DNA from: Bryobacterales bacterium
GTDB taxonomy: Bacteria > Acidobacteriota > Terriglobia > Bryobacterales > UBA6623
Direction of reading: 5' to 3'
Assembly (NCBI GenBank): GCA_028819215.1
Contig: JAPPMG010000054.1
Location: forward strand, 14,541-78,540
DNA length: 64,000 bases
Positions 28,251 to 61,334 of this stretch are shown piece after piece; within the stretch, counting starts at the first letter, position 1; each line of letters starts with the position of its first letter. The notes below the pieces were generated by a model. It made no database searches. It was not told the DNA's origin and saw nothing but the letters and a program-made list of their open reading frames with translations. The translations under genes and the position numbers were made by a program.

Positions 28251-28264
28251 TGAAAGGGGACCTC

Positions 28265-28591: not shown

Positions 28592-28600
28592 CCGGAGGAG

Positions 28601-32839: not shown

Positions 32840-32879
32840 GCAGCCAGTTTCGCATCAAAAGGAGACGTGAAGTCAGACA

Positions 32880-44879: not shown

Positions 44880-46295
44880 CTAGGCGAGCAAGTCCCGAAC
44901 GACTTCCCCGTGGACATCTGTGAGCCGGAAGTCTCGACCGGCGTGGCGGAAGGTCAGCCTCGTGTGATCCAAGCCGAGTAAGTGCAGGATCGTGGCGTGC
45001 AGATCGTGGAAGTGGACCTTGTTCTCTACGCCGTAGTAGCCGTACTCGTCGGTTTGGCCGTACGTAATGCCGGGTTTGATTCCGCCCCCGGCCAGCCACA
45101 TCGTGAAGCCGTGCGGATTGTGGTCGCGTCCATCAGCGTTCTCTGCTGTCGGCGTGCGGCCGAACTCGCCGCCCCAAATGACCAGCGTCTCGTCGAGCAG
45201 GCCGCGTGCCTTTAGGTCCTTGACGAGACCGGCGATTGGCTTATCCACCTGGGCGCACATCTTGGTGAGCGAGTTCTTCAGGTCAAAGTGGTGGTCCCAG
45301 CCGTTGCTGTTGCACTGCACGAAGCGCACTCCGCTCTCGCTGAATCGACGCGCCATGAGGCACTGCCGGCCGAAATCTTCGGTAACCGGATCGTTCAGGC
45401 CGTACATCGCCTTGGTCGCAGCGCTCTCGGAGCTCATGTCCTGGACCGACGGCGCCTCCGTTTGCATGCGGAAGGCCAGTTCGAACGTTGCGATGCGGTC
45501 TTCCAACTCGGGGTCGGGACCGTTCCGGGCCAGTTGGCGTCGCGAGACATCCGATAGCATGTCGAGTTCCAGGCGCTGCAGGCGTTTTCGCTGCCCGTCG
45601 CCGATGAACGGGAAACTGGCCTCCTTCGCCTTGACGTTGCCGTAGCCCAGCGGCGTGCCTTGATGGGCCGCCGGCAAGAAGGCGGAGCCGAAATTGTTCG
45701 CGCCTCCCTCGGCCAAGGCCTGGCAGATGGTGATGTAGCCGGGCAGGTTCTGGTTCTCCGAACCAAGGCCGTACGTTAGCCATGACCCCATGGCCGGCCG
45801 GATGAACGTGTCGCTGCCGGTGTGCCACTCGAGCACGGCGCCGCCGTGCCGGGGATTGGTGCAGTGCATCGAGCGCACAATCGCCAGATCGTCGACGATG
45901 CCCGCCACGTGCGGAAAGAGCTCGCTGACATCGGCACCGCTCTGGCCATGCTGCTTGAACTCGAACGGCGAGCCGATCAAGTCGCCGGCGCGGCGCGGGA
46001 ACGAAATGATGCGCGGCTTGGCGAACGGCAGGGGCTTGCCGCTGTCACGGTTGAGAAGCGGCTTCGGGTCGAACGTGTCGATGTGCGAGGGGCCGCCGAA
46101 CATGAACAGCATGATGACGCGCTTGGCGCGCGGCTCGAAGTGCGGCTCGCGCAGCGCTATCGGGCCCGATGCTTCGGCTTCTTCGGCGAGCAGCGAGGTG
46201 AGCGCAAGCCAGCCGAATCCCGCGCCCATCTGCTTGAGAGCCTCGCGACGGGAGGCTCCCGCTTCGATGCCTTGAGACTGCATTGCCGACATCAT
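44880..46295 (-). CDS. DUF1501 domain protein (sulfatase-like fold) with twin-arginine signal
   Basis: Track ORF trimmed to ATG 46295, which forms an ATGA overlap with the stop of the upstream DUF1553 gene. TAT motif SRREALKQMGAGFGWLAL. Confidence 0.85.
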   Translation of the reverse strand: MMSAMQSQGIEAGASRREALKQMGAGFGWLALTSLLAEEAEASGPIALREPHFEPRAKRVIMLFMFGGPSHIDTFDPKPLLNRDSGKPLPFAKPRIISFPRRAGDLIGSPFEFKQHGQSGADVSELFPHVAGIVDDLAIVRSMHCTNPRHGGAVLEWHTGSDTFIRPAMGSWLTYGLGSENQNLPGYITICQALAEGGANNFGSAFLPAAHQGTPLGYGNVKAKEASFPFIGDGQRKRLQRLELDMLSDVSRRQLARNGPDPELEDRIATFELAFRMQTEAPSVQDMSSESAATKAMYGLNDPVTEDFGRQCLMARRFSESGVRFVQCNSNGWDHHFDLKNSLTKMCAQVDKPIAGLVKDLKARGLLDETLVIWGGEFGRTPTAENADGRDHNPHGFTMWLAGGGIKPGITYGQTDEYGYYGVENKVHFHDLHATILHLLGLDHTRLTFRHAGRDFRLTDVHGEVVRDLLA

Positions 46296-48634
46296 TGTAT
46301 GTAGAGAAATTCGTTCGACGCGATCAGGATGCGGCACATGGCCTTCCAAGCCGCGTCCCTGTCCCCCGTGGCCGCTTCGTAGCGGTCCAAGAACGCGCTC
46401 CAGCTCTCGGTCTCATCGGGCTCGGACGGACGTGAAAAGGCGATCTGGTGTGCTAATCCGATGCGTTCGGGGTCGCCCTCGAGGGTCTCTCGCGCCAGTC
46501 TTGCCGCGAAGCCGGCGGACGCCTCGTCCACCAAGTCGGAGTTCAGCATGAAGAGCGCCTGAGGGGCGACCATGGTCGCCCCGCGATCGCCATTGGAGGT
46601 GGACGGGCTGGCAAAGTCGAAAGCCGCGAACATCTCGTACAGGGCGCTGCGCAGCACCGGCAGATAGACGCTGCGCCGCCGCGTGTCGTACAGGGCCGGA
46701 TCCCGCGAACGCGACTGGGCGTTGAGATTCGCAAAGTTCTTGTGCGGGATGGTCTTGCCCCCCGTCGCAAAGTCCAAGCTGTCGGAGATGGCCAGTAGCG
46801 CGTCGCGCAACGTCTCGGCTTCCATTCGCCGGCGGTTGGCGTGGCTGAACTGGCGGTTGTCCGGGTCGGCTTCGGCATGCCCCTCGGTCGCTCTGGAAGA
46901 CAGCTGGTAGGCGTCCGAAAGCATGATCAAGCGGTGCATCGACTTGACCGACCAGCCACTTGCTTGGAACTGCAGCGCCAGCCAGTCCAGAAGTTCCGGG
47001 TGGTCCGGTGGTTCGCCAAGCTTGCCGAAGTTGTCGGGAGTGCGCACGATGCCTTCGCCGAAATGCCACTTCCAGATCCGGTTGACCATCACGCGGGCGG
47101 TCAGTGGATGGTGCTTGGAGGTCAGCCACTGCGCAAGCTCCAGCCTGCCGCTGCTTTGCGATCCGATCGGACTCTGCTGCTCTCTGGCCAGAATCGCGGG
47201 AAAGCGGCGCGGAGCGATCGGCCCGGGCGTGAGGTGGTTGCCGCTGATCATCAGCGGTAGGTCCGCAGCGTCCCCCTCCGCAACTGCCATCGCCTTGGGG
47301 ATGCCGTAGTACTCGTCGAGAGCGTCGCCCTCGGCCGCCTGCTGCGCCTCTACCACACGCTTGGGAGTGGTTGCTCGGTTGTAGTTCGTGACGAAGTCGT
47401 TGTGGTAGTCGAAGCGCTTCTCGATCTCGGAGAGTCGGCGGTTCTCTTCCGCGCTTGCGAGCGCCGTGGCATTGAGCTTGGAGGTGACCCGGTAGGTGAG
47501 CACCGTCTTGGTGCTGGTGAAGATGCCCAGCATGGAGTAGTAGTCGGCGCTGCGAATGGGGTCGAACTTGTGATCGTGGCAGCGGGCGCAATCGATGCTC
47601 AGCGCCATGAACGCGCGCGCGGTGGTGGCCAACTGTTCGTCCGCGAAGTCCAGTTTCTGCTTCACGGGGTCGTCTTCGCCAACCATCTTGGGGCCGAGCA
47701 TCAAGAAGCCGGTTGCGATCAATCCCTCTGCGCGATTGGCGTCGCCCCAGTCCGTGAGGATGTCGCCCGCCAGCTGTTCGCGCACGAACTCGTCATAGGG
47801 CTTGTCTTGATTGAACGCCCGGATCACGTAATCGCGGTAGCGCCAGGCGTCGCCGTGGACGATGTTGTCGTCCATCCCGTTGCTATCCGAATAGCGCGCA
47901 ACGTCCAGCCAGTGTCGACCCCAGCGCTCTCCGTAACGAGGTGATGCGAGCAGCCGGTCCACAACGCGCGTGAAGGCATCGTCTGACGCATCGGCGAGGA
48001 ATGCGCGGACTTCGTCCGGAGTGGGAAGCAAGCCGTGCAGGTCGAGCGTAGCTCGCCGAATCAGCGCTCGCTTGTCACTGGCCCCTACCGGCCTCAGGCC
48101 GACTCGTGCCCGGCCGATTCCTAGCAAGGCGTCGACCGCCGTATCGCCCGGCGGCATGGCCGGGGCCTGTAGCGGCTGGAAGGCCCAATGTGACCGTTCC
48201 TCGGCGGAAAAGCCATCAGACCGCGCGATCCCCTCCGGCGCCCGGGCCGGCTCGTGTTCGGGCCAGTTCGCGCCCGTATCGACCCATTTGGTCAGGATTG
48301 CGACCTCGCCAAGCGGCAGCTTCGCCTTGGGCGGCATTTGCAGCAGTGTGTCATGATTGATCGCGTGGATCAGCAGGCTCTGGGCCGCGCTGCCCGGCAC
48401 CACCGCGGGCCCCGAGCGACCGCCCTTGAGGATGCCGGCCAGTGAATCCAGGCGGAGCCCGGCTTGCCCCTCGCCGGCGTGGGGGCCGTGACAGGCGAAG
48501 CACCGGTTGGCCAAGATCGGGCGGACGTGCTTCTCGAAGAATGCGTGGTCTTGCGCCGTGACCGATATCGGCACAAGTCCAACCAAAGCCGCGATCCACA
48601 AGGCTGTCCCGTGCGAGGCCATGGTCTTGGGCAA
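46292..48634 (-). CDS. PSCyt/DUF1549/DUF1553 protein (Planctomycete-type cytochrome-c-motif protein)
   Basis: 780-aa ORF with a signal peptide, an N-terminal CFACHG, and a central DCARCHDHKFDPIRSADYY. ATG 48622 is an alternative start. Confidence 0.85.
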   Translation of the reverse strand: MPKTMASHGTALWIAALVGLVPISVTAQDHAFFEKHVRPILANRCFACHGPHAGEGQAGLRLDSLAGILKGGRSGPAVVPGSAAQSLLIHAINHDTLLQMPPKAKLPLGEVAILTKWVDTGANWPEHEPARAPEGIARSDGFSAEERSHWAFQPLQAPAMPPGDTAVDALLGIGRARVGLRPVGASDKRALIRRATLDLHGLLPTPDEVRAFLADASDDAFTRVVDRLLASPRYGERWGRHWLDVARYSDSNGMDDNIVHGDAWRYRDYVIRAFNQDKPYDEFVREQLAGDILTDWGDANRAEGLIATGFLMLGPKMVGEDDPVKQKLDFADEQLATTARAFMALSIDCARCHDHKFDPIRSADYYSMLGIFTSTKTVLTYRVTSKLNATALASAEENRRLSEIEKRFDYHNDFVTNYNRATTPKRVVEAQQAAEGDALDEYYGIPKAMAVAEGDAADLPLMISGNHLTPGPIAPRRFPAILAREQQSPIGSQSSGRLELAQWLTSKHHPLTARVMVNRIWKWHFGEGIVRTPDNFGKLGEPPDHPELLDWLALQFQASGWSVKSMHRLIMLSDAYQLSSRATEGHAEADPDNRQFSHANRRRMEAETLRDALLAISDSLDFATGGKTIPHKNFANLNAQSRSRDPALYDTRRRSVYLPVLRSALYEMFAAFDFASPSTSNGDRGATMVAPQALFMLNSDLVDEASAGFAARLARETLEGDPERIGLAHQIAFSRPSEPDETESWSAFLDRYEAATGDRDAAWKAMCRILIASNEFLYIQ

Positions 48635-48642
48635 AGCGTAGC

Positions 48643-50388
48643 ATGAGCGCCATCGATTGGAGCATTGTGATCGCGCTCAATGCCGGGATCATCCTGTACG
48701 GAATCGTTCGCGGGCGCGACACCAAGACTAGCTCCGATTGGTTCTTGGCGGGGCGGAGCTTGCCGTGGTGGATGATCGGGCTCTCGCTCTACGCCACCGC
48801 GATCGACGCCAGCGATCTCGTGGCCGATGCCGGTGGCACGTACGCCGTCGGAATGAGCTACTTGGTCACCAATTGGGTCGGCGTGACCTTGGGCTGGTTC
48901 CTGCTCGCGAATTGGATCGCGCTCCCGATGTACCGCGCGGGCATGTATACCAATGCCGAATACCTTGAAGCGCGCTTCAGTCTCTCCGCACGTGTGATCA
49001 GTGCCTTGGTTCAGGCCCTCTACCGCACGTTGGTCTTGGCGATCATCGCAATCACGCTCTACCTTCTGCTGGCGATCGTGTGCGGGTTGGGCACGAATGC
49101 GTGGTGGGGTGTCGTGCTGATCGCCGTGCTGGCAACCGCCTACACGTCGCTGGGCGGGCTGCGGGCGGTAGCGGTGACGGATGCACTGCAGAGCGTCGTA
49201 ATGGTCGTTGCGTCGTTCGCTCTGTTCTACGCCGTCTGGATGGCTGTTGGCGGTTGGGGCGGTGCGGGCGAACGACTCGAGAGCCACGAACCCGGCTTGT
49301 CGGCGCAGTTGCTGCATGCTGGCACCGATAACATCGCTGTCCAGGGCGTGGTCGGAGAGTCGCCGGAGACGGTGGCGCGGCGCCTTCTCGTCGGTGGCGA
49401 GCTGAGCCCGGACGGGGGAGAAATCGTCACGCGGAGTCCGGCTTGGTTAGTCTCGCTGGCTTGGCTGATCATTGGCCTGGGCTACGCCGTGGTCAATCAC
49501 ACGCAGTCCATGCGGCTGTTCGGGGCGCGCAGCGAGTGGGACCTGCGTATGGCCGTAGTCGTTTCGGGACTCGTATTGCTGGTCCTGAACTTCACCAACT
49601 TGTCGGTCGGCATCTTCGGACGGGCTCTCTATCCCGACCCTAGCTTGATGCCACTGGCCGCGGAGTTGCAGGTGCGGGACTCGACGTTCCCTCTGATCGT
49701 GCGGGAACTCACTTCGGCCGGACTGCGCGGCGTGATCGTCGCTGGCGTGGTCGCCGCTTGCTTTTCTACGTTCGACTCGATCGGCTCGACCGTGCCGTCG
49801 CTGCTCGTGCGCGACGTTCTTGCCCGCTTGTTCGTCAAGAACCGGCCTGACAGCTACTTCGTGTCGGCTAGCCGCTGGCTCACGCCCGTTGTAATCTTGG
49901 GGGCCTTTGCGTTCGTGCCCCTCATGATGCAAGAACGGGGCATGCTGATGGTGTTTCTGGACTGGGTAGGGGCGTTTGTCGTTCCGCTGCTGGCGGTATA
50001 TCTGATGGGCGCGTTTACCCGAGTTCACCGCTCCAGCGCGACTTGGGGGCTTGCGGTGGGAATCATCTACGGAACCCTGAAGTTGTTGGCACCTGTTCTG
50101 GCCCTCCGTTTTGGCGTCGCGCTCCTGCCCGCCATGCTGGTGAACAACTATGCCAGCACCGTCATCAGCCTGCTGCTCACAGTCGCCGCGATGCTAGCCG
50201 TATCGGCCGTGCGCGGCTGGGAGCCTTCCAGCCAGCCCCGGGAGCTGGCATTGGAAGGCTGGCTGCGCGACAGCCGCGCCGCGATTGCCGTCGCTGCAGG
50301 CGACCAGCGTCCCGTCGCAGTGCCGGTACTCTTGGCTGGCGCGATCGTCGCCATCGGCGCGGCGTTGAGCTTCGGTGTGTTCTGGTAG
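48643..50388 (+). CDS. sodium:solute symporter (SSS) family transporter
   Basis: 581-aa polytopic ORF. The N-terminus, WSIVIALNAGIILYGIVRGRDTKTSSDWFLAGRSLPWWMIGLSLYATAIDASD, is typical of the SSF family. Confidence 0.85.
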   Translation: MSAIDWSIVIALNAGIILYGIVRGRDTKTSSDWFLAGRSLPWWMIGLSLYATAIDASDLVADAGGTYAVGMSYLVTNWVGVTLGWFLLANWIALPMYRAGMYTNAEYLEARFSLSARVISALVQALYRTLVLAIIAITLYLLLAIVCGLGTNAWWGVVLIAVLATAYTSLGGLRAVAVTDALQSVVMVVASFALFYAVWMAVGGWGGAGERLESHEPGLSAQLLHAGTDNIAVQGVVGESPETVARRLLVGGELSPDGGEIVTRSPAWLVSLAWLIIGLGYAVVNHTQSMRLFGARSEWDLRMAVVVSGLVLLVLNFTNLSVGIFGRALYPDPSLMPLAAELQVRDSTFPLIVRELTSAGLRGVIVAGVVAACFSTFDSIGSTVPSLLVRDVLARLFVKNRPDSYFVSASRWLTPVVILGAFAFVPLMMQERGMLMVFLDWVGAFVVPLLAVYLMGAFTRVHRSSATWGLAVGIIYGTLKLLAPVLALRFGVALLPAMLVNNYASTVISLLLTVAAMLAVSAVRGWEPSSQPRELALEGWLRDSRAAIAVAAGDQRPVAVPVLLAGAIVAIGAALSFGVFW

Positions 50389-50417
50389 GCCAATAGCGCT
50401 GGGTGAGCGATTGCGCC

Positions 50418-51569
50418 ATGAAGATTCGCGACATCGAGGTCATCAACCTGTGCTTCGAATATCCGCTCGAGCGGCGGTTTCGTTATGCCGGCGGGACCTG
50501 CACGGGCCGCCTGACGACTCTGGTCAAGGTCCTCACCGACGAGGGCGTCGAGGGGCTGGGCTCGGTCTATTCGCATCCGGACTTGGTGCGGATAATCATC
50601 GAAGGCCAATTGCGCCCTCTTCTGGTGGGCGCTGATCCGCTCGAAGTCGAGGCGTGCTGGCAGCGCTGTTACGCGCTGACGCGCTGGTACGGGCGCAAGG
50701 GCGCCGCAGTCTCAGCCCTAGGCGGCATCGATATCGCCCTGTGGGACATCCGGGGCAAAGTCGAGGGAAAGCGGATCTGCGACCTGATCGGGCCAGCCAG
50801 AGCGGCAGTCCCCGCGTACGCCAGCGGCCTGCTCTGGGAGGGCGAGATCGGCGAACTCAGGGACGAAGCGCAATGTCATCTCGAACACGGTTTCCGCGCT
50901 GTCAAGATGCGGCTGGGAAGAGATCCTGACTATGACCGGGCAGCTCTGAGCGCCGTACGCGACACGATCGGCCCGGACGCACGCCTAATGGTCGATGGAA
51001 ATGCCCGCTATTCGCTGGGCGAGGCGCGCCAGATGGCACCGGATTGGCTCGCTGCCGGTGTGTTCTGGCTGGAGGAGCCCTTCGCCCCGGAGCAGCCCGA
51101 AGCGTTTCGGGCCCTGCGGCCCACCATCCCGGGGATTCCGTTGGCCGCCGGAGAGAACGAGTTTGGACGGCAAGGCTTCAAGGAGCTGATCGATGGCGGA
51201 GTGGTCGAGATCGCGCAGCCGGATTGCTGCCGTTGCGGGGGACTGACCGAGGCGCTGCGCATCGCCTCGGACGCAGCCGAGCGCGACGTCAGGATCGCGC
51301 CGCACACTTGGAGCGACGCGGTGGCGCTGACGGCCAACATGCACTTGGTAGCGGCGACTCCCCACGCCGTCACAGTAGAGGTGGACCAGACTGGCAATCC
51401 GTTCATCGAAGAGCTACTCGTCGGTGGACTGCCAATTGCGGGAGGTCAGCTAGAGCTGCCGCATTCGCCTGGCTTGGGTATCGAGCTGAACCAAGATACG
51501 GTTCGCAAGTACACCGTCCCGCGCGGTCAGGCCACTCCTCCCGGCAACTATTCCGACATGGTTTTTTGA
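50418..51569 (+). CDS. enolase-superfamily enzyme (mandelate racemase/muconate lactonizing family; sugar-acid dehydratase-like)
   Basis: Track ORF (GTG 50403) trimmed to ATG 50418. It has the KMRLG motif and metal-ligand motifs MVDGNARY, WLEEPF and AAGENE. Confidence 0.88.
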   Translation: MKIRDIEVINLCFEYPLERRFRYAGGTCTGRLTTLVKVLTDEGVEGLGSVYSHPDLVRIIIEGQLRPLLVGADPLEVEACWQRCYALTRWYGRKGAAVSALGGIDIALWDIRGKVEGKRICDLIGPARAAVPAYASGLLWEGEIGELRDEAQCHLEHGFRAVKMRLGRDPDYDRAALSAVRDTIGPDARLMVDGNARYSLGEARQMAPDWLAAGVFWLEEPFAPEQPEAFRALRPTIPGIPLAAGENEFGRQGFKELIDGGVVEIAQPDCCRCGGLTEALRIASDAAERDVRIAPHTWSDAVALTANMHLVAATPHAVTVEVDQTGNPFIEELLVGGLPIAGGQLELPHSPGLGIELNQDTVRKYTVPRGQATPPGNYSDMVF

Positions 51570-51740
51570 ACCTGCCGCGAGAGTCGACCTACTCACCGAG
51601 TCGACAAATCGTGATCATGAGCTTCTCAAGCTGTCATCGGTGGCAAGTTACAGACAACACAGCCCAACCTCGGAAAGGTATCCGGGCCTTAGCCGGGACC
51701 TCGCCATCGCGCCCCGGCCTGATTCGCCTAACGAATTCCG

Positions 51741-52460
51741 CTATCGTCGCCCCACCTTGCCGAGCTGCCAGACCTTCCGAGCGACGTCGGAAGAACCGCC
51801 CTCGCCGCGCGCATCGCGCTTCACCTCGCGCATCAGTTCAGTTGCGCTACCGAAGCACCTGATCTTCTCTGCTCCCCATTCATAGGTCGGCTTTGAAGAA
51901 GTGTTCTGCTCGCCGGCGAAGACCAAACATCCGGTTACTCGCATTCCCGGCGCCCAATCTCGGATGCCCCTGACATTGAGTGCAATTCGCCGCAAGGTCT
52001 CTTGGAAATGCGACATGGGAAGGCGCCCATGCTTTGTTTCGATGACCCATAGCCCGCGCGGCGTCGCTACCAAGTGGTCGATATCTCCAACCTTGGCGAT
52101 ATGCTGTACGTTGTGCGCTACTGCACACCGCTCTCGAGTCAGCGCGTACTCGATCGCCTGTCCGACCCTCTCCTCGGCGCGCACGCCTTTCCTCATGTGT
52201 GGCAATCGCCAGCCTTTCGCGAGTTCGTGCAACGTCGCGCCTAGCGTCGCTGCACCCGGTATCAACACGAGCAAGATCGCCCATCCCGCTCCCAGCTCCA
52301 TGGTGACCATCCCGGCGAGCCCGCCGCAAAGCCATCCGGCTGCGAAAGTCGCAAGGACGGTGGTATCCGCGATTCGGTCAAGGAGCTTTCGGCGAAGCCA
52401 CTCGCCAGGGTTTCGTTTCATTCCGTTTCTCTCAATCCGGCCCAGCACCAAGGCGTTCAT
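51741..52460 (-). CDS. NERD (nuclease-related domain) protein with N-terminal transmembrane segments
   Basis: 239-aa ORF. It has two hydrophobic segments (VLATFAAGWLCGGLAGMV, WAILLVLIPGAATLGATL), then GVRAEERVGQAIEYAL...VGDIDHLVATPRGLWVIETKHGRL. Confidence 0.75.
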   Translation of the reverse strand: MNALVLGRIERNGMKRNPGEWLRRKLLDRIADTTVLATFAAGWLCGGLAGMVTMELGAGWAILLVLIPGAATLGATLHELAKGWRLPHMRKGVRAEERVGQAIEYALTRERCAVAHNVQHIAKVGDIDHLVATPRGLWVIETKHGRLPMSHFQETLRRIALNVRGIRDWAPGMRVTGCLVFAGEQNTSSKPTYEWGAEKIRCFGSATELMREVKRDARGEGGSSDVARKVWQLGKVGRR

Positions 52461-52632
52461 CCAAGTGTAGTTTCCGACCTACGTCATCTCCCCGGAGGTG
52501 GTCCAAGACCGTTCTCCGCTATGTGGCCTCCCGGGGCTGGACTATGTTGTATGCAACTTGCCGCGGATGGCAGCTTGAGGGTTCATTATCGCCGTTGGAC
52601 GATTGGGTATCGGAGGTCATACACTTAGCCCG

Positions 52633-52833
52633 CTACACAGCTGGCTCGTCATTTTGCGCGGCTAAAGTCGCTCCCACGAGCCGATGGATGGTAGTTTCGA
52701 TCGCAAGGATTCGCATGGGTTTGGTGCAGCGCTTGATGTCGCCTCTGAGCTGTTCCGGCAGATTCTTTGAGTGCTGCCGCATACGGTGCTCGATCCAGAG
52801 GCTGGGGCCACGCTCCAGAGCGACACATCCCGG
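52633..52833 (-). pseudogene. C-terminal remnant of an IS256/Mutator-family transposase
   Basis: Found by manual translation; it is too short and lacks a start, so it is not in the track. HSKNLPEQLRGDIKRCTKPMRILAIETTIHRLVGATLAAQNDEPAV* aligns without gaps to the IS256 C-terminal consensus STNLIERLNQEVRRREKIIRIFPNQTSANRLIGAVLMDLHDEW as I remember it. About 17 of 43 residues are identical, including RI, RL.GA.L and DE. No upstream catalytic region or terminal repeats were seen. Confidence 0.5.
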
Positions 52834-52909
52834 CTATTTCCCAAGCCCACCTCCGGCCGCATCGCAGTAAGAGTCATCAATCACTTGGGAGAGAGGGTAT
52901 TCAAACTCT

Positions 52910-52942
52910 AGGTTAATTCAAAATCAAACTTTGAATTAACCT
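52910..52942. promoter_or_regulatory. perfect 13-bp inverted repeat AGGTTAATTCAAA-N7-TTTGAATTAACCT in an AT-rich leader
   Basis: Arms at 52910..52922 and 52930..52942 lie 23-55 bp upstream of the AAA ATPase ATG (52965). This is the only strongly AT-rich stretch in this intergenic region. Confidence 0.45.
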
Positions 52943-52964
52943 AATTTTTCCTAGACTGTGTTCA

Positions 52965-54140
52965 ATGATCGAGCGCGACCTCTACCCAAGGCTAACGGAG
53001 GCGGCCCAGAAGTGGCCGTCGATCACGCTCACTGGGCCGAGGCAGAGCGGTAAGACGACGCTGTGCCGTGCCACGTTCCCGCAGCACCCGTACGCGACAC
53101 TGGAAGCCCCGGACGTTAGGGCCTTCGCTCTTGACGATCCCCGCGCGTTCCTAGCCCAGTTTCCCGAAGGTGCCATCCTTGACGAAATCCAGAGAGCGCC
53201 AGACTTGCTCTCGTACCTGCAGGGCATCATCGACGCAGGCCCGGTGCCTGGTCGCTGGATACTCATCGGCTCGCAGAATCTCTCTCTGCTTCAGTCGGTC
53301 AGCCAGTCGTTGGCCGGAAGGACGGCGGTTCATAGGCTGCTTCCGCTGACGCGAGGCGAAACGATGCGATTTCCCCGGTGTCCCGAGACTCTCGCTGAGA
53401 GTCTCCTCACCGGATCATACCCACGCATATTCGATGCCAATCTCGATGCTGCGGACTGGCTCGGTTCCTACGTCGCCACGTACATCGAACGCGATGTACG
53501 GATGATCAGGAGCGTTGGCGATCTCACGACGTTCCAGCGCTTCGTAGTACTCTGTGCCGGCCGAACCGCGCAGTTGCTCAACTACTCGTCACTAGCCGCG
53601 GATTGCGGCATCTCGCAGCCGACCGCGAAGACTTGGCTCGGTATCCTCGAGACCAGCTATCTCGTCTTTCGCCTCCCCCCGCTTCATGCAAATCTGCGCA
53701 AGCGGCTCGTGAGAATGCCCAAGCTCCATTTCTACGATTCTGGACTTGTCTGCTGGTTGCTGGGTATCCGAACGCCCGAACAACTCCTCACGCATCCGCT
53801 TCGCGGACCGATCTTCGAGACTTGGGTTGCCTCCGAAATTGCGAAACGCTGGGCCAATCGCGGCGAAGCCAGCGGACTATCGTTCTACCGAAATCAGAAC
53901 GGGGCGGAAGCCGACCTTCTCATCGAGCGCCCCTCCGGGGTCACGCTTATTGAAGCCAAATCTGCCGAGACAGCGTCCACACGCCTGCTCGACGGTGCCA
54001 GACGCGTCCGAAGGCAGCTCGACCGAGCGACCGGCCAATGCTCCGTCGTCATAGTCTATGGCGGCGATCAACCGCAGCGCCGCGGAACAGATTGGTTGGT
54101 TCCTTGGAGGGAACTGCACCAGTTTGACTGGGATGCGTGA
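52965..54140 (+). CDS. AAA+ ATPase with C-terminal DUF4143 domain
   Basis: 391-aa ORF with Walker A GPRQSGKTTL and the Walker B-like AILDEIQRAPDLL. The C-terminal half is DUF4143-like (HFYDSGLVCWLLG...GPIFETWVASEI). Confidence 0.85.
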   Translation: MIERDLYPRLTEAAQKWPSITLTGPRQSGKTTLCRATFPQHPYATLEAPDVRAFALDDPRAFLAQFPEGAILDEIQRAPDLLSYLQGIIDAGPVPGRWILIGSQNLSLLQSVSQSLAGRTAVHRLLPLTRGETMRFPRCPETLAESLLTGSYPRIFDANLDAADWLGSYVATYIERDVRMIRSVGDLTTFQRFVVLCAGRTAQLLNYSSLAADCGISQPTAKTWLGILETSYLVFRLPPLHANLRKRLVRMPKLHFYDSGLVCWLLGIRTPEQLLTHPLRGPIFETWVASEIAKRWANRGEASGLSFYRNQNGAEADLLIERPSGVTLIEAKSAETASTRLLDGARRVRRQLDRATGQCSVVIVYGGDQPQRRGTDWLVPWRELHQFDWDA

Positions 54141-54381
54141 AGTTCTGTCGGCGCCGTGAGAGTCGGCGACCACCCAATCGCTGGAGCCAGAGTTATAGCG
54201 CTGTGCCCCAACGGGACATGGAAGCGAGGGCCGACCAACGAGAGAGACACAGCAGCGCCTAACAGACCGACCAGCCCAAACACATCAAATACGGTATGCA
54301 TTTTCGACACAATTTGGCTACGCCATATGGGCACAGTATCGCTGCCCTTAGCGTATGTAACCTGATGGAATGCCGGGTTGT

Positions 54382-54636
54382 CTAATCGGATGTGGTATGC
54401 TCCAATGAACGGTTTCGTGCTCCACCGTGTGTCGCCAGACGACTATGGTTGTGGATCCGAGTCCTATCCCGTCCAAGTGGTGGCTCTAGGTTGAAGGTCG
54501 GCTTAATTTCTACTCCGAGCTTCCTGAGTTCCAACTCAAGCCGCTCATAGGCAGTTACGACGGCGACATCGACACTTGGGTTCTGACTGAATGCCCTGTC
54601 TCGATCCAATAGCAGTTTCTCTTGATTCGTCTTCAT
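54382..54636 (-). CDS. small hypothetical protein, second gene of the protease cassette
   Basis: Track ORF 54382..54681 trimmed to ATG 54636, which lies 1 nt after the protease stop (54638..54640). The protein begins MKTNQEKLLLDRDRAFSQNPSVDVAVVTAYERLELELRKLGVEIKP... The gene is low in GC. No family recognised. Confidence 0.45.
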   Translation of the reverse strand: MKTNQEKLLLDRDRAFSQNPSVDVAVVTAYERLELELRKLGVEIKPTFNLEPPLGRDRTRIHNHSRLATHGGARNRSLEHTTSD

Positions 54637-54637
54637 G

Positions 54638-55486
54638 TTAGAAGTACCCCCTTGTATGCACGAAGGAGAATAGTTGTTCACGACTCATATAATCCTTCAA
54701 TAACTCGAAGTAGAGCTTCACATACTGGTATAGCCTCGAATTAGCCGAGAGATCTTCGATCTGCAGGCCGACCTCGTCACGTAAGGTCCGTATATCGATT
54801 CCACGTGCGTGGGAATGCCACCTGGAAGTTTCGTTGAGTAGGTCTGCAATCTCCTGTGCTCGTGTCACTTTCATCTCATCTGTGACCGGCTTCTTCCTCG
54901 TTTCAGTATTCGTCCACCCCTTAAACTTGTATGTTGAAAGCCATTTAACTAACAGTTCCACGGACAGCTCTCGGGCCTGCTCAAATTGGTATAATTCACC
55001 AAGATCGAGCTTGCTCAGAAGTGCATATTCTGCCGTGCTGAGGTCATTTGTTGCTGCCTTTTTGTTGAGACGTTCGAACTGATTCAAATAGGAAAGTGCT
55101 GGGACTAATTTCCCGTCTTTCTCGATCTGAGGGTCGATTGGTCCTAAACAAGAGAAATAATCCATCATGATGCGGTCTGCGCTCAAGGCAAATATGGTTC
55201 CGGCAGACATTGCGCGGTCCGGTACGATGACCGCAACTTCATCGAAGGCCCACCGCAGAGTCGTAACAATCCGTTCTACAACTTCGACAATTCCTCCGGG
55301 AGTGTCGAGTATTACAGCTATCGAGTTCTTCTTCTCGGAGAGTTTATCTATTGCGTCTCGTATGCGAAGATCGAGTCCAGGAACTATCGGACTGACAATT
55401 GCAACGACATCTGCGTTCAGTTCGGCACCGATGGTTTCAATGTGAGTGTCTAACTCATGCTTGATCTGTGAATCGACCGGTCTCAT
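54638..55486 (-). CDS. Clp/crotonase-fold serine protease, SDH (serine dehydrogenase proteinase, S49-like) family
   Basis: 282-aa ORF. AVILDTPGGIVEVVERIV...VPDRAMSAGTIFALSADRIMMDYFSCLGPIDPQ matches the ClpP/SppA-like oxyanion and catalytic-Ser layout. No signal peptide or TM segment is present. The gene is markedly AT-richer than its surroundings. Confidence 0.7.
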   Translation of the reverse strand: MRPVDSQIKHELDTHIETIGAELNADVVAIVSPIVPGLDLRIRDAIDKLSEKKNSIAVILDTPGGIVEVVERIVTTLRWAFDEVAVIVPDRAMSAGTIFALSADRIMMDYFSCLGPIDPQIEKDGKLVPALSYLNQFERLNKKAATNDLSTAEYALLSKLDLGELYQFEQARELSVELLVKWLSTYKFKGWTNTETRKKPVTDEMKVTRAQEIADLLNETSRWHSHARGIDIRTLRDEVGLQIEDLSANSRLYQYVKLYFELLKDYMSREQLFSFVHTRGYF

Positions 55487-55788
55487 CTAGTTACGATTGG
55501 CAACGTGCGGTTCGCAGGAGTCGATCCGAGGTATCAAGGAGCCACGCCGCAATTCGGTGACGTCGAATCCAGACGACACAGTGTGATCTCAGACCCCTGC
55601 CTTCTAAGTGTACGTTATCTATGGTTGCACGATGGGATATGTCAATGGGCGTGGACGGGCAAGGCCAACGAGACGTCTTCCCAGCAGCGACATGGCTTCG
55701 TATCGACGAGTGGAAGACTTCGAAACGATGCCGTGGACGTCCACGCGACCGGCTTGAAGATCCTGCACGTTCGTCCGAGGCTGAAGTT

Positions 55789-56577
55789 ATGATTCGTGAC
55801 ACAGACGCACTCCGAGCCCTATTGTGCGAGAGCCTCGGCCAAGAAGTGCAAGTCGAACCGCGCCCGGATGGTGCGCTCATGTTGCGCACACACTTTGCGT
55901 TTCCCGATGGCGACCGCCTACCGATTCATGTCTCCATATCAGCGTCGGGCGGCCTTCGACTGTCAGACCGTGGGCATACGCTGATGCGCATCAGTTACGA
56001 CCACGATGTCGACTCATTCATGGACGGTACGCGCGGAATGATCCTAGAGCGCATCATGGGGGAAACCGGGCTTCGCTGGGATGGCGATGGTGGCGTGCTC
56101 TGCGTTGACACCGAGTTCGAGAGCCTACCAGAAGCTATCTTCGCCTTCGGGCAAGCGCTGACAAGGGTCTATGACCTGACGCTGCTCTCCCGTTCCAATG
56201 TCGACTCAACTTTCTATGACGACTTAGCCGACCTCCTCTTCAGATATGTGGGCGAAGCGCAAATCGAACGCGACTTCCAGCCGGCTGTGCCCAGTGCTGA
56301 CGCCTATCCGGTGGACTATCGGATAGAAGGGAAGAGCGGCGTCCCGCTTTTCCTGTTTGGTGTACCGAACCGCGATAAGGTGCGCTTAACTACCATCGTG
56401 TTGTCGCACTTCCACAGGCACGAGTTGCATTTCGAGTCGATTCTTGTTTTTCAAGACCAAGCCGCGATTCCGAGGTTGGACCTTGCGAGGCTATCAGACG
56501 TTGGTGGAGACATGATTTCGTCGCTGGCTTCGCACGACGACTTGAATCGGAAGCTCCTCCAACGCGTCGCAGCTTGA
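55789..56577 (+). CDS. DUF1828/DUF1829-like protein
   Basis: Track ORF 55621..56577 trimmed to ATG 55789 (MIRDTDALRALLCESLG...). The pattern LRTHFAFPDGDRLPIHVSISASGGLRLSDRGHTLMRI resembles DUF1828 as I recall it. The assignment is tentative. Confidence 0.55.
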   Translation: MIRDTDALRALLCESLGQEVQVEPRPDGALMLRTHFAFPDGDRLPIHVSISASGGLRLSDRGHTLMRISYDHDVDSFMDGTRGMILERIMGETGLRWDGDGGVLCVDTEFESLPEAIFAFGQALTRVYDLTLLSRSNVDSTFYDDLADLLFRYVGEAQIERDFQPAVPSADAYPVDYRIEGKSGVPLFLFGVPNRDKVRLTTIVLSHFHRHELHFESILVFQDQAAIPRLDLARLSDVGGDMISSLASHDDLNRKLLQRVAA

Positions 56578-56606
56578 CAGCGTTCGCGGTCTCTTCCTGA
56601 TAGTCG

Positions 56607-57329: not shown

Positions 57330-57367
57330 GCCGAATGCGCTCGCTCCTCGACGGGTGTCGTGCCCGC

Positions 57368-58813
57368 CTAGGCCAAGAGCGGTTGGATGATATTCCCGCC
57401 GACGTCGGTGAGTCGAAAGTCCCTGCCGCGAAAACGGAACGTGAGCCTTTCGTGGTCAATGCCCAGCAGGTGCAGGATCGTGGCTTGGACATCATGCACA
57501 TGCACGGGATCCTTGACGGCGGCGAATCCGATTTCGTCGGTCTCGCCGATATTCTGTCCCGGCTTCGTGCCGCCGCCGGCGAACCACATGGTGAACGCGT
57601 CGATGTGATGGTTCCTGCCAACGGTATCGCGAACCTCGCCCATCGGCGTGCGACCGAATTCGCCGCCCCAAACCACCAGCGTGTCTTCCAGCATTCCGCG
57701 CTGCTTCAGATCCATGATCAGGGCCTTGCAGGCCTGGTCGGCCGACAGGCAGACCTCATCCAGATCCTTGTCGAGAGTCTCGCCCGGACCGCCGTGGTGG
57801 TCCCAACTCGAGTGGTAGAGCTGCACAAAGCGCACGCCGCGCTCAACCAAGCGCCTCGCGAGCAGGCAGTTGTTGGCGAATGACCGCTCTCCGGGCTTGA
57901 CTCCGTAGAGGTCGAGAGTCGCCTGCGACTCGGTGGAGAAGTCGATCAGCTCCGGCCCGCTGGTTTGCATTCGGTGCGCCATTTCGTAGGCGGAGATGCG
58001 AGTCTCGATCTCCGGGTCGCCGGCTTGCTCCAAGTTGAGCCGGTTCAGGTCGAGGATCGCTTCGACGGTTGCAGCCTGCCGTTCGGACTCGAAGCCGGCG
58101 GGGCTGGTCATGTTGAGAATGGGCGCGCCTCCGCCGAGGAATGGAACGCCTTGGTGCGCGGTCGGCAGAAAGCCGCTGGTCCAGTTCATCGCGCCGCCGC
58201 GCGGCCCGCGCGGCCCCGATTGCAACACCACGAAGCTCGGCAGGTCTTCGGCTTCGCTGCCGATGCCGTAACTGACCCAAGCTCCCATGCTGGGACGCCC
58301 GAAAAACGGCGTGCCCGTGTTCATGAAGATCTTGGCCGGGGCGTGGTTGAAGTTCTCAGTGTGGACCGTGCGCACGAAGGTGACGTCATCCACGATTTGG
58401 GCGGTGTGGGGCAAGCACTCCGATACCCACTGGCCGGACTCGCCGTGCTGAGCGAACTTGCGCCGAGTGCCCAGCAGCTTCGGCGGGTTGTGGGTGAACG
58501 ACTCCATGAACGCGAAGCGCTTGCCTTCCATCAGCGACGGCGGCAGCGGCTGGCCGCTGAGCTTTTGCAGTTCGGGCTTGGGCTGGAACAGCTCGAACTG
58601 GCTGGGAGCTCCCGCCATGAACAGGTAGATGATGCTCTTCGCCCGCGGGCTGTGATGCATGCCGCGCCGCTCGGCGGGATTGGCATAGAGCGAATCGCCC
58701 ACGAAGAGAGAGGTCAGCCCTAGCTTGCCCAAGCCGACGCCGCAGTCTTGGAAGAGCTGGCGCCGGGTCCGCTGTCTCAGCACGGCGCGGTGGAGGTCGG
58801 TCGGGGGATTCAT
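57368..58813 (-). CDS. DUF1501 domain protein with twin-arginine signal (paralog 2)
   Basis: Track ORF (TTG 58834) trimmed to ATG 58813, 4 nt after the upstream gene's stop. TAT motif RTRRQLFQDCGVGLGKLGL. It is collinear with 44880..46295. Confidence 0.85.
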   Translation of the reverse strand: MNPPTDLHRAVLRQRTRRQLFQDCGVGLGKLGLTSLFVGDSLYANPAERRGMHHSPRAKSIIYLFMAGAPSQFELFQPKPELQKLSGQPLPPSLMEGKRFAFMESFTHNPPKLLGTRRKFAQHGESGQWVSECLPHTAQIVDDVTFVRTVHTENFNHAPAKIFMNTGTPFFGRPSMGAWVSYGIGSEAEDLPSFVVLQSGPRGPRGGAMNWTSGFLPTAHQGVPFLGGGAPILNMTSPAGFESERQAATVEAILDLNRLNLEQAGDPEIETRISAYEMAHRMQTSGPELIDFSTESQATLDLYGVKPGERSFANNCLLARRLVERGVRFVQLYHSSWDHHGGPGETLDKDLDEVCLSADQACKALIMDLKQRGMLEDTLVVWGGEFGRTPMGEVRDTVGRNHHIDAFTMWFAGGGTKPGQNIGETDEIGFAAVKDPVHVHDVQATILHLLGIDHERLTFRFRGRDFRLTDVGGNIIQPLLA

Positions 58814-58817
58814 CGCG

Positions 58818-61334
58818 CTATTGCCTCGTAACAAACTCGTCTAGGTTGAGCATCACTCGGGCGGCGGCCGTCCAAGCCGCCCCGCTGGCGGTGTCGGCCC
58901 CGGTCTTGCGCAGCGCTTCTGCGTCCGTGGCGAACGCATCGGTCATGTGGCTCAGGAAGCCTGCCAGCCGCTCCGTCTCTGGTGCCCGGGGCTGTCGGGC
59001 CAGGCAGATCTCGAAGGCTCGCCGAATGCGCTCTTCGCGATCGTCCGAGTACTCGCGAATGCGGGTTGCCAAGGCGCTCGCGAATTCGGTCTGTGACTCG
59101 TCGTTGAGCAGCGTCAGCGCCTGCAGCGGCGTGTTGGAGCGATTCCGGCGCGTGACGCTCTCCTGGGCGATCGGGGCATCGAACAGGATGAGCCCGGGGT
59201 GTGCCGCGGACCGGATGAAGTACGTGTACATGCCCCGCCGGAAACGGCTCTGCCCCTCGTCGGCCTTCCAGTTTCGATCCACCTGCGTGAACTGCCCGGC
59301 GCCTGCGGGTTGGGGCGGGTACACGCTGGGACCGCCCACGGCCGGCGCCAGCAGGCCGGACGCCGACAGCGCGGCATCGCGAATAATCTCCGCTTCTAGG
59401 CGGAGCCGGTTCTGGCGCGCCAGCAGCCGGTTGCCCGGGTCGACCGCAGCGGCATCGGCGCGATGGGCGGAAGCTTGGCGGTAGGTGGCCGAGTGCAGGA
59501 TCAGCCGGTGCATTTGCTTAAGATCCCAGCCGCTACGCACGAATTCCGAGGCCAGCCAGTCCAGCAGCTTCGGATGGCTGGGCGGATTGCCCTGGGTGCC
59601 GAAGTCGTTCTCCGTCTCGACGATTCCGATGCCGAAGTAGCGTTGCCAGAGTCGGTTCATGGTCACCCGCGGCGTGAGCGGATTGTCGTCGGCGACCAGC
59701 CAGCGGGCTAGGCCCAGCCGATTACGCGGTAGGTCGGGCCGCATCGCGGGCAGGACTCGCAGCGTACCCGGCTCGATCGCGTCGCCGCGACGGGTGAAGT
59801 CTCCCTGCACGTGGAGGTAGGCATCGCGCGGCTCCGGGAGGTCGCGCATGACCATCGTCCATGGGATCTTGGGCAGCTTCTTGCTGAGTTCGCCGATCTC
59901 TTTCAGCTTGGCCTCGAACTCGGGCACGCGGCTGGCGAATACCCGCTGCAACACGCTGTCTTGGACGGACGAGCGATCCTCCGGAGCCAAGGCGATGATG
60001 TCGCGGGCTCGTTCGATGTCTTCCATCTCGCCCGGAGGGAAGCGTTCACTCCAAGTTGCCTCTAGCGATGAGCTCAGGTCTTCGAGTTCGCCCTCCAGGC
60101 GGCCCAGCTCGCTCCGCACCGAGTCGCGCTCGGCCAGCGCGGCAGGCTCGGCCAGCTCGAGGATCGGATCCATCATGCGGCGGCGGCCCTCGCGCTCTTC
60201 GAGATTGCCTCCGATCTCGTCGACGTTGTTGAAAAAGGCGAAGACCTGGTAGAACTCGCGCTGCGAGATCGGATCGAACTTGTGGTCGTGGCAGCGCGCG
60301 CAGCCAAGCGTGAGCCCCAAGAAGGCTGCGCCAGTCGTACGGACGCGGTCGACCACCGCCTCGACACGATACTGTTCGAAGTCGGTGCCGCCCTCTTGGT
60401 TGATCATCGTATTGCGGTGGAAGCCGGTGGCGATGAGCTGGTCGCGCGTGGGATCAGGCAGCAAATCGCCGGCGACCTGTTCGATCACGAATTGATCAAA
60501 CGAAAGATTCTCGTTGAAGGCATTGATCACCCAATCGCGGTAGGGCCAGATCGAGCGTGGGCCGTCGATCGAGTAGCCGTTGGTGTCGGCATAGCGGGCG
60601 ATGTCGAGCCAGTGTCTGCCCCAGCGTTCGCCGTAGTGAGGAGACTCGAGCAGTCGCTCCACGAGGCGGCCGTACGCGCCGGGCTGGTTGTCCTCCAAGA
60701 AGGAGCGGACTTCTTCTGGCGTAGGCAGCAGTCCGGTCAGGTCGAGGGTAGTTCTGCGAATCAGAGTGCGGCGGTCGGCTGCGGGCGAAGGCTTCAAGGC
60801 TTCCTGTTCAAGCCTGCTCAGGATGAATGCGTCGATCGGGTTGCGACCCCACGCCGCGTTGCGCACTTGAGGCGGCTCGTGACGCACCACGGGCTTGAAC
60901 GACCACAGCGCCTCGGACGCTTGCGGATCACCTGCCGGGCGGCCCCACGCGGCGCCTCCCTGGACCCAGGCGCGCAGAGCATCGACCTCGGAGGCTGGCA
61001 GCGCTCCCGTCGGCGGCATCTTCAGGGCGCCGCTTTGTTCGACGGCTGCGATCAGGACGCTGTCGGACGGACTGCCTGGCACCAAGCTCGGCCCGCGAGA
61101 GCCACCCCGGAGCAGTGATTCCCGGGACGTCATCGCCAGCCCGCCGCTAGCAACCGTATCGTTGTGGCAGCTCTGACACTTAGCGGCAAGCAGCGGTCGG
61201 ACTTCCTCTTCGAAGAAGCGACTGCCGTCATCTTGCGCGCAAAGGCTGGGGACGACGCATAACACGCCCCACCAACTAAGCGCCCGTTTCATCGCTGCCA
61301 ACATTCTACCCGATGACCCGGAGGTCTGAGACAT
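58818..61334 (-). CDS. PSCyt/DUF1549/DUF1553 protein (paralog 2)
   Basis: 838-aa ORF with CQSCHN near the N-terminus and GCARCHDHKFDPISQREFY centrally. ATG 61292 (MKRALSWWGVLCVV...) is an alternative start. Confidence 0.85.
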   Translation of the reverse strand: MSQTSGSSGRMLAAMKRALSWWGVLCVVPSLCAQDDGSRFFEEEVRPLLAAKCQSCHNDTVASGGLAMTSRESLLRGGSRGPSLVPGSPSDSVLIAAVEQSGALKMPPTGALPASEVDALRAWVQGGAAWGRPAGDPQASEALWSFKPVVRHEPPQVRNAAWGRNPIDAFILSRLEQEALKPSPAADRRTLIRRTTLDLTGLLPTPEEVRSFLEDNQPGAYGRLVERLLESPHYGERWGRHWLDIARYADTNGYSIDGPRSIWPYRDWVINAFNENLSFDQFVIEQVAGDLLPDPTRDQLIATGFHRNTMINQEGGTDFEQYRVEAVVDRVRTTGAAFLGLTLGCARCHDHKFDPISQREFYQVFAFFNNVDEIGGNLEEREGRRRMMDPILELAEPAALAERDSVRSELGRLEGELEDLSSSLEATWSERFPPGEMEDIERARDIIALAPEDRSSVQDSVLQRVFASRVPEFEAKLKEIGELSKKLPKIPWTMVMRDLPEPRDAYLHVQGDFTRRGDAIEPGTLRVLPAMRPDLPRNRLGLARWLVADDNPLTPRVTMNRLWQRYFGIGIVETENDFGTQGNPPSHPKLLDWLASEFVRSGWDLKQMHRLILHSATYRQASAHRADAAAVDPGNRLLARQNRLRLEAEIIRDAALSASGLLAPAVGGPSVYPPQPAGAGQFTQVDRNWKADEGQSRFRRGMYTYFIRSAAHPGLILFDAPIAQESVTRRNRSNTPLQALTLLNDESQTEFASALATRIREYSDDREERIRRAFEICLARQPRAPETERLAGFLSHMTDAFATDAEALRKTGADTASGAAWTAAARVMLNLDEFVTRQ

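Follow-up and report, generated by a model that had tools for sequence, protein, structure and literature searches.

The question raised by this locus is what two neighbouring gene pairs, each encoding a large protein with CxxCH motifs and a DUF1501 protein, do in the bacterial periplasm. The pairs lie in a stretch of 64,000 nucleotides from a Bryobacterales bacterium (assembly GCA_028819215.1, contig JAPPMG010000054.1, positions 14,541 to 78,540), here called the window, to which all coordinates refer. A first-pass annotation, made from the sequence alone, had proposed that each pair forms a two-component periplasmic redox or hydrolytic system. We find that both pairs belong to the already described DUF1501-PSCyt/PSD1 module, and we tentatively read this module as a periplasmic two-subunit metallo/heme enzyme. 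New here are the replaced sulfatase signature of DUF1501, the lack of a PDB neighbour for the large partner, the optional PSCyt1 domain, the co-divergence of the partners, their unconserved flanks and a third module in the same window.

Two pairs of a described module

The two pairs consist of the following genes, with domains assigned by Pfam on the translations.

46292..48634, minus strand: large protein 1 (large-1), with a Sec signal peptide, PSCyt1, PSCyt2 and PSD1
44880..46295, minus strand: DUF1501 protein 1 (D1), 471 residues, with the twin-arginine (RR) signal SRREAL at 46245-46250
58818..61334, minus strand: large protein 2 (large-2), with a Sec signal, PSCyt1, PSCyt2/DUF1549, a coiled-coil insert and PSD1/DUF1553
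57368..58813, minus strand: DUF1501 protein 2 (D2), 481 residues, with the RR signal TRRQLF at 58760-58765

The four open reading frames, their order and their spacing are as the first-pass annotation had described them, and the families that it had suggested were found. DUF1501 (PF07394) matches D1 with E 6e-149 and D2 with E 2.5e-148 (496.9 and 494.9 bits against a gathering cut-off of 27 bits), spanning profile positions 1-390. In the large proteins, PSCyt1 passes its cut-off of 22 bits with 63.5 bits in large-1 (E 2.9e-17) and 40.9 bits in large-2 (E 3e-10). PSCyt2 (251.8 bits, E 8e-75, and 305 bits, E 4e-91) and PSD1 (288.4 bits, E 5.5e-86, and 320 bits, E 1.2e-95) also lie above their gathering thresholds, and the domains follow each other in the expected order. 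None of the four proteins has a model in NCBIfam, and their close homologues come from metagenome-assembled genomes (MAGs) of Bryobacterales or Acidobacteriia.

In both pairs the large gene comes first and the DUF1501 gene follows directly on the same strand. Read directly from the sequence, the junction of pair 1 is caATGAtg, in which the TGA stop of large-1 and the ATG start of D1 share 4 nt. The junction of pair 2 is TAG-cgcg-ATG, a 4-nt gap with a GAGG a few bases upstream of the D2 start. From these junctions, each pair appears to be a self-contained, translationally coupled periplasmic two-protein module. The likelier start of large-1 is the ATG at 48622 (776 residues) rather than the TTG at 48634. 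Large-2 starts at either 61334 or 61292; the latter gives 824 residues and is also where the 100%-identical database entry P0121 begins ('PSD1 and planctomycete cytochrome C domain-containing protein [Bryobacterales]'). Upstream of the ATG at 61334, at a distance of 46-63 nt, there is a perfect 8+2+8 inverted repeat (61380-61397, CGATAGAG-ca-CTCTATCG) that could be an operator site.

The same combination of genes has been described in the Planctomycetes-Verrucomicrobia-Chlamydiae (PVC) superphylum (Studholme 2004 and the two later studies below). Kamneva et al. 2012 (PMC3542564) reported DUF1501 and a PSCyt1/PSCyt2/PSD1 protein as a conserved PVC genetic unit of unassigned function that also occurs in a few Acidobacteria, in which DUF1501 often has a twin-arginine signal; they also reported that the module correlates with compartmentalised cells. 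He et al. 2017 (PMC5615132) placed these PSCyt genes in 'Group II', with up to 50-71 copies per genome, and noted that nothing is known on their function. According to these two studies, the module is commoner in genomes from oxic layers and some large partners are fused to carbohydrate-binding modules. The literature searched agrees with the statement of the first-pass annotation that such pairs are abundant in Planctomycetes and some Acidobacteria and have no assigned function. No later functional study of these families was found in it, and RefSeq still names the proteins by DUF numbers.

The pairs in the window share with the PVC module the Pfam families, the gene order and adjacency, the RR on DUF1501, the CxxCH on the partner and the many paralogues per genome. 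Nothing essential differs; here the host is a Bryobacterales MAG of the Acidobacteriota, and two paralogous pairs that are 36-45% identical lie 9 kb apart. The two pairs are old paralogues, with 45% identity between the small proteins and about 36-41% between the large ones. We conclude that both pairs are members of the described module.

The 80 loci over which the pairing was followed come from Planctomycetota, Verrucomicrobiota and Acidobacteriota, plus one each from MAGs of Abditibacteriaceae, Hydrogenedentota and Kiritimatiellia. Upstream sequence of 2.5 kb or more was available for 74 DUF1501 genes. In 60 of these, the large gene is the immediate upstream neighbour on the same strand. 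In five it lies nearby upstream, in four of them separated from DUF1501 by 0.7-1.4 kb of spacer or an unrelated small gene (a Uma2 and a NIPSNAP gene in the two cases scanned), and in one it lies downstream. The other eight DUF1501 genes are orphans, and an IS110 transposase gene stands next to one of these. When 61 pairs are compared, the pairwise distances of the two partners correlate (Pearson r = 0.81; maximum 0.21 in 999 permutations), and both partners have the same nearest neighbour in 41 pairs. Because the distances correlate and the nearest neighbours coincide, we conclude that the pairs have been inherited and duplicated as units. The co-divergence fits partner specificity and the proposed two-component system, but it does not prove a complex.

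Two proteins in which a PSD1 fragment is joined to DUF1501 were rejected as evidence for fusion: P0331 has neither strand 1 nor the GGxS motif, and P0357 looks like a read-through of adjacent genes. In marine Planctomycetaceae contigs (loci L002-L004), a 70%-identical D1 orthologue is clustered with a second, divergent DUF1501 gene. This second gene has a PQQ_2 beta-propeller gene upstream in place of the PSCyt protein, and the cluster also holds a 1036-residue protein with a cytochrome c domain. Because a PQQ_2 gene precedes the second DUF1501, other DUF1501 subfamilies may have other partners. In other phyla, DUF1501 pairs with DUF1800 proteins, which may be related to PSCyt2/PSD1. Here, the Pfam scan gave no DUF1800 signal, and the module matches on plasmids were all of the DUF1553 type.

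The two partner proteins

The first-pass annotation had called the small proteins sulfatase-like. Four motifs are placed as follows in each of them.

D1, minus strand: GGPS at 46086-46097, WDHH at 45288-45299, GEFGR at 45156-45170 and GRDH at 45120-45131
D2, minus strand: GAPS at 58601-58612, WDHH at 57794-57805, GEFGR at 57650-57664 and GRNH at 57608-57619

DUF1501 is a very large family, in which 29,751 clusters at 50% identity reach E <= 1e-3. Conservation was taken from 82 diverse members that are only 35-60% identical to D1. The twin arginines that the first-pass annotation had pointed out stand in the contexts SRREALK (D1) and TRRQLFQ (D2) and are conserved in at least 95% of these members, though the Pfam TAT_signal model gives neither protein a score. 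Conservation of about 80-100%, and mostly of 95% or more, is seen at positions along the whole protein: R16-R17, G67, G68, S70, D/E73, D76, K78 and P79 in the N-terminal part; D135, H150, T159, G160, E290, R316, E320 and R324 in the middle; W333, D334, H336, D351, D360, E377, F378, G379 and R380 after these; and G389, R390, D391, H392, D416, D431 and T435 in the C-terminal part. About 20 polar residues are conserved in at least 95% of the sequences.

We compared an AlphaFold2 model of D1 (predicted local distance difference test, pLDDT, 72; predicted template modelling score, pTM, 0.80) with the PDB. Foldseek returned 117 matches at E <= 1e-3, and the best 50 of these are all sulfatases or LtaS (best E 2e-6, probability about 1.0), at about 10% identity and with TM-scores of 0.29-0.39. 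The model thus predicts an alkaline-phosphatase-superfamily fold for DUF1501. Sequence searches with the single proteins against the PDB found nothing relevant, and profile searches gave only weak segmental matches. In one of these segments, the DUF1501 profile stretch 'D..LLDxTLVvwggE' aligns to the metal-ligand helix-strand of LtaS ('VMYGD', E 0.005) and of a sulfatase ('ffsDN', E 0.02). Because the aligned segment ends in the metal-ligand Asp, Glu377 is placed at the position of the metal-ligand acid, and the next residue is Phe378 instead of His or Asn. As predicted by the model, DUF1501 would share with LtaS and the formylglycine-dependent sulfatases (SulfAtlas S1) the core fold, the segment before the metal-ligand acid and the periplasmic location. 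Unlike them, it has a helical insert of about 90 residues (residues 234-320) and an obligate large partner.

The catalytic signature of sulfatases is not conserved. After strand 1, where sulfatases have Asp-Asp, DUF1501 has Gly67-Gly68. The C/S-x-P-x-R nucleophile motif is not conserved either: its region is gapped and variable across the 82 members, and the motif is absent from D2. An S-F-P-x-R stretch is present only in D1 (SFPRR, 46002-46016, residues 98-102) and its close orthologues (SFPRR at locus L088, SFPNR at L090). The SFPRR of D1 fits the minimal Ser-type formylglycine motif S-x-P-x-R and lies in a low-confidence loop of the model. As a family-wide formylglycine motif it was rejected, as it is missing from D2 and the wider family; it remains an oddity of D1 and its orthologues. 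Furthermore, the Pfam Sulfatase model gives no match even at E <= 10, and an hhalign comparison of DUF1501 with the window's own sulfatase is not significant (probability 0.7%). Since the Asp-Asp and Asp-His/Asn ligands are replaced, no C/S-x-P-x-R is conserved and the Sulfatase model does not match, we conclude that DUF1501 shares the sulfatase fold yet is not an S1 sulfatase. Thus, the fold part of the first-pass description stands and its catalytic connotation does not. What is conserved looks like a metal-dependent active site that is not that of sulfatases; judged by the alignment, it may comprise Ser70, Asp/Glu73, Asp76, Lys78, Asp135, His150 and Asp334 together with His336, Glu377, Arg380, Arg390, Asp391 and His392.

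The N-terminus of large-1, like that of large-2, is a typical Sec signal peptide that ends in A-QD. The motifs reported by the first-pass annotation are present in both large proteins:

48488..48502, minus strand: CFACH motif of PSCyt1 in large-1, with Met-Pro-Pro at 48329-48337
61164..61178, minus strand: CQSCH heme-c-type motif of PSCyt1 in large-2, with its partner Met-Pro-Pro at 61011-61019
47555..47590, minus strand: CARCHDHKFDPI block of PSCyt2 in large-1, identical to the block of large-2
60267..60302, minus strand: CARCHDHKFDPI block of PSCyt2 in large-2, identical to the block of large-1

In PSCyt1, C39, C42 and H43 as well as M92, P93 and P94 are invariant across 63 homologues. A CxxCH with a distal Met motif in a domain of about 80-100 residues is the pattern of class-I c-type cytochromes, and there is a weak match to Pfam Cytochrome_CBB3 (1.3e-4). 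The PSCyt1 signature F..-v-P-iL..-C-..CH and a later W-containing helix also align to a small class-I cytochrome c (PDB 6kq1) and to hydrazine synthase alpha (PDB 5c2v), in the latter to the C-terminal heme-c domain; these matches are weak (E 0.6-0.8) and do not extend beyond roughly residue 110 of the large protein. The sequence of these N-terminal residues is consistent with a class-I heme-c domain. The first-pass annotation had put its emphasis on this domain, which turns out to be dispensable. Because 12 of 61 partners of related DUF1501 genes go from the signal peptide straight into PSCyt2, PSCyt1 is optional.

The internal motif is far more constant. A CxxCH-type motif is present in 59 of 60 partners, as an exact C..CH.HK.DP in 54 and as a near match in five. 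Across 61 diverse partners, C331, A, C334, H335, H337, K338 and P341 are at least 95% conserved, as are about 65 further positions across PSCyt2 and PSD1 (about 70 in all), which are rich in Arg, Asp and Trp. Residues 283-351 of large-1, ending within CARCH (345-349), weakly match the diheme cytochrome c model TIGR03806 (2.4e-4, far below the cut-off). The AlphaFold2 model of the 824-residue large-2 is nearly all helical (pLDDT 77.6, pTM 0.76), and Foldseek found no structural neighbour for it in the PDB (best E 0.9). In the models, some conserved loops have low pLDDT (149-164 and 381-391 of DUF1501, 660-727 of PSD1). The constant core of the module is thus a signal peptide, PSCyt2 with its CxxCH, PSD1 and DUF1501.

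A third module of a parallel type lies on the other strand:

37705-38985, plus strand: DUF1552/HXXSHH protein (Pfam) with a DRRQFL signal
38982-41444, plus strand: 820-residue PSD3/PSD5/PSD4/PSCyt3/PSD2 protein with CQSCHG near the N-terminus and CAICHSAIDPIG internally

Like the DUF1501 pairs, this module combines an RR-signal protein of about 430-470 residues with an 800-residue Sec protein whose gene overlaps by 4 nt (an ATGA junction). Its large protein likewise has an N-terminal CxxCH and an internal CAxCH....DPI, and CAICHSAIDPIG (CAICH..IDPI) is of the same motif type as CARCHDHKFDPI. In contrast to the DUF1501 pairs, the gene order is reversed, with the small gene first. The large partners of the two types share no detectable homology beyond the motifs. 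When the DUF1501 and DUF1552 profiles are compared with hhalign, the C-terminal cores align with WDxH opposite LSHHG (probability 60%, E 9e-5), whereas Glu377 is not conserved in DUF1552; a relationship of the cores is suggested only. The pairing of DUF1552 with a PSCyt3 protein has been described as 'Group III' (He 2017, Text S1, PMC5615132). With it, the number of modules in the window comes to three, of two parallel types.

A possible two-subunit enzyme and its alternatives

How might such a module work? We lean, tentatively, towards a periplasmic two-subunit enzyme, in which a Tat-exported, metal-loaded DUF1501 would be the catalyst and the large protein its Sec-exported heme partner. The two proteins would form a 1:1 complex in the periplasm. 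DUF1501 would fold and take up its metal in the cytoplasm and would therefore need Tat export, and its target may be an anionic group of the ester type in a soluble organic substrate. The large subunit would recognise the substrate and carry one covalent c-type heme at CARCH; where PSCyt1 is present, a second heme could wire the enzyme to the periplasmic electron pool. The chemistry would thereby be redox-coupled and not plain hydrolysis. The many paralogous pairs per genome may each be specific for a substrate of their own, much like sulfatases or glycoside hydrolases. An analogy in mechanism is offered by the sulfite dehydrogenase SorAB, in which a Tat-exported, cofactor-loaded catalytic subunit and a Sec-exported heme-c subunit are encoded by adjacent, co-transcribed genes. 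There is no homology: the catalytic subunit of SorAB is a molybdoenzyme outside the alkaline phosphatase superfamily, and its cytochrome is small.

Several observations weigh against this reading. The D1 model is only moderately confident and its TM-scores to sulfatases are low, and the twin-arginine signals escape the Pfam model. Since the canonical nucleophile and metal dyads of alkaline phosphatases and sulfatases are replaced, catalysis by DUF1501 is deduced from conservation. As PSCyt1 is absent from 12 of 61 partners, a link to the electron pool would not be universal. Eight orphans among 74 genes and four pairs with an insertion between the partners indicate that strict 1:1 coupling is not obligatory, and linkage together with a shared history would alone also give co-divergence. 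In the literature searched, no complex, heme, metal or activity was found for the module. Furthermore, no conserved neighbourhood hints at a substrate: in the 136 genes that flank 55 related pairs, every Pfam family occurs three times at most.

Alternatively, the roles could be exchanged, with the large protein as the enzyme, a novel helical fold that would hold a catalytic c-type heme at CARCHDHK, and DUF1501 as an accessory protein or pseudo-enzyme for substrate handling, partner stabilisation or maturation. The invariant CxxCH, the about 70 highly conserved positions, the fold with no PDB neighbour and the canonical motifs lost from DUF1501 all agree with this. However, DUF1501 keeps a dense set of His, Asp, Glu, Ser and Arg residues at the loops after the core strands, as active enzymes of the superfamily do, its near-universal RR signal suggests a cofactor loaded in the cytoplasm, and orphan DUF1501 genes occur. 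We therefore regard this exchange of roles as unlikely, if worth keeping in mind. The same orphans, the insertion of Uma2 or NIPSNAP genes between partners at some loci and the different export routes could also mean that two independent enzymes catalyse consecutive steps from co-transcribed genes and form no complex. The ATGA overlap and the 4-nt spacing, a gene order that is fixed in 60 of 74 cases, and the strong co-divergence with shared nearest neighbours speak against such independence, which we think quite unlikely.

The module may also not be enzymatic at all, and serve in binding, sensing or structure in the periplasm or envelope, for instance in signalling linked to extracytoplasmic function (ECF) sigma factors or in the intracellular membranes of PVC bacteria. 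Studholme et al., as cited in Wecker 2009, suggested the ECF sigma factor RB10049 as regulator of the PSD1/PSCyt2 gene RB10051, and RB10049 is up-regulated under stress in R. baltica (Wecker 2009). Genes of the Sigma-70 ECF type flank two of the 55 pairs in our scan, and the correlation with compartmentalised cells (Kamneva 2012) points in the same direction. We nevertheless consider such a role improbable, as the module occurs in Acidobacteriota, Gammaproteobacteria and Bacteroidota, all of which lack PVC cell plans, its proteins have no transmembrane or DNA-binding domains, the pattern of conserved residues resembles that of enzymes, and the family is very large. Least credible is that DUF1501 is an ordinary formylglycine-dependent sulfatase with an incidental cytochrome neighbour. 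Some orthologues are labelled 'sulfatase' in databases, D1 and its close orthologues have S-F-P-x-R, the non-significant hhalign alignment put the D1 Ser on the Cys of the sulfatase CTPTR, and true sulfatases are nearby. The replaced metal ligands, the S-x-P-x-R stretch missing from D2 and gapped or variable in the family, and the failed Sulfatase comparisons make it highly improbable. Overall, the interpretation in the first-pass annotation is reasonable, in line with published speculation and in part supported by our results.

Returning to the two-subunit enzyme, a wider and rather speculative claim can be made, to which we give only a small chance. The DUF1501+PSCyt2/PSD1 and DUF1552+PSCyt3/PSD pairs could together make up a very large class of periplasmic two-subunit enzymes that has gone unrecognised and that joins a re-tooled metal site of the alkaline phosphatase superfamily to a c-type heme in a fold with no solved relative. 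Such enzymes might remove or modify anionic decorations on glycans or other organic matter in an oxygen- or redox-dependent manner. If true, Planctomycetota, Verrucomicrobiota and Acidobacteriota would have in them a third major toolkit for catabolism, next to their glycoside hydrolases and sulfatases. The pairs reach up to 50-70 copies per genome in abundant heterotrophs of soil and water, and the domains were named more than twenty years ago and still lack a biochemical function. If a function were assigned, the annotation of tens of thousands of genes would change, and new periplasmic chemistry in carbon or sulfur cycling could come to light. The window itself adds little to this, as the module is common in this lineage and the window supplies a further example. 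The low-copy, horizontally acquired pairs of Catenovulum may be more tractable for genetics.

Genomic surroundings

Around pair 1 and between the two pairs, the window contains the following features.

43590..44810, plus strand: GFO/IDH/MocA oxidoreductase with the RR signal HRRHFL (Pfam TAT_signal 7.7e-4)
48643-50388, plus strand: SSF sodium/solute symporter (Pfam, NCBIfam), divergent from pair 1
50403-51569, plus strand: MR/MLE sugar-acid dehydratase-like gene (Pfam, NCBIfam), divergent from pair 1
51741-56577: variable stretch, in which GC falls to 0.525, between the pairs; it encodes NERD, an AAA_14/DUF4143 ATPase, a ClpP-like SDH protease, DUF1828 and a histidine phosphatase

The symporter, the dehydratase and a variable accessory stretch are thus present between the pairs as had been described. 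The first-pass annotation had also placed the pairs among sulfatases and sugar-acid metabolism genes. Such genes are indeed there: one sulfatase lies 1.5 kb from pair 1 and a second starts at 16.8 kb (16837-18354, with a CGPTR motif), and the GFO/IDH/MocA oxidoreductase, which like the first sulfatase is located downstream of pair 1, weakly resembles the periplasmic glycoside 3-dehydrogenase family (NCBIfam, below cut-off). However, the setting is lineage-specific. The block of MR_MLE, SSF, large, DUF1501 and GFO genes is retained at 81-93% identity (L001, L088/L089; the GFO/IDH/MocA gene stays beside the pair-1 orthologues at 81% in L088/L089), and the SSF/MR_MLE/GFO genes are gone at 77% (L090), 73% (L005) and 70% (L002). 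The SSF/MR_MLE synteny therefore lies outside the conserved module. Sulfatases are not among recurrent families in the 136 genes flanking the 55 pairs. As no family recurs in this census, the local sulfatase, SSF and dehydratase genes were rejected as a guide to the substrate, which guilt-by-association will not reveal. The module is also found on megaplasmids of algal-polymer degraders among Gammaproteobacteria and Bacteroidota, and the horizontally acquired copies in Catenovulum lie beside GH43, GH115 and GH98 genes and another c-type cytochrome gene. The context as a whole points, if only loosely, to the catabolism of organic polymers.

Large-1 and the SSF symporter gene are divergent, with only 20 bp between their starts (48623-48642) and the same spacing in L001. 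From this spacing, either their promoters would lie within the neighbouring coding regions or the starts are mis-set.

The first-pass annotation had further described the pairs as bracketing the region between them. The only DNA-level repeat between the pairs is a 75-nt coding stretch, 80% identical, over the WGGEFGRTP region, and thus the bracketing has no repeat structure and no structural meaning. A composite element was rejected, as no DNA repeats bracket the region and no tRNA gene is nearby. In the relative L001, which is 87-93% identical, the same frame encloses a different middle stretch. Because of this, 51741-56577 looks like a variable, defence-like or mobile insert that is not part of the module. 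Its AAA_14/DUF4143 ATPase matches the PADLOC candidate PDC-S01 (1e-98) and its DUF1828 protein matches PDC-M24B.

Further genes in the window lie outside the modules. An open reading frame of 471 residues (10203-11618, minus strand) has no Pfam match, and one of 956 residues (18992-21862, plus strand) has only a marginal match to DUF3604. A run of genes on the plus strand (25110-36330) encodes two 890-residue MacB_PCD/FtsX (ADOP-like) permeases, an HlyD-type adaptor, an ABC ATPase and a TonB-dependent receptor with a CarboxypepD_reg domain; the permeases and the receptor are in keeping with an origin in the Acidobacteriota. At 36631-37449 (minus strand) lies a putative restriction endonuclease gene of the Uma2 family (PADLOC candidate PDC-S03); at locus L006, a Uma2 gene is inserted between the large gene and DUF1501.

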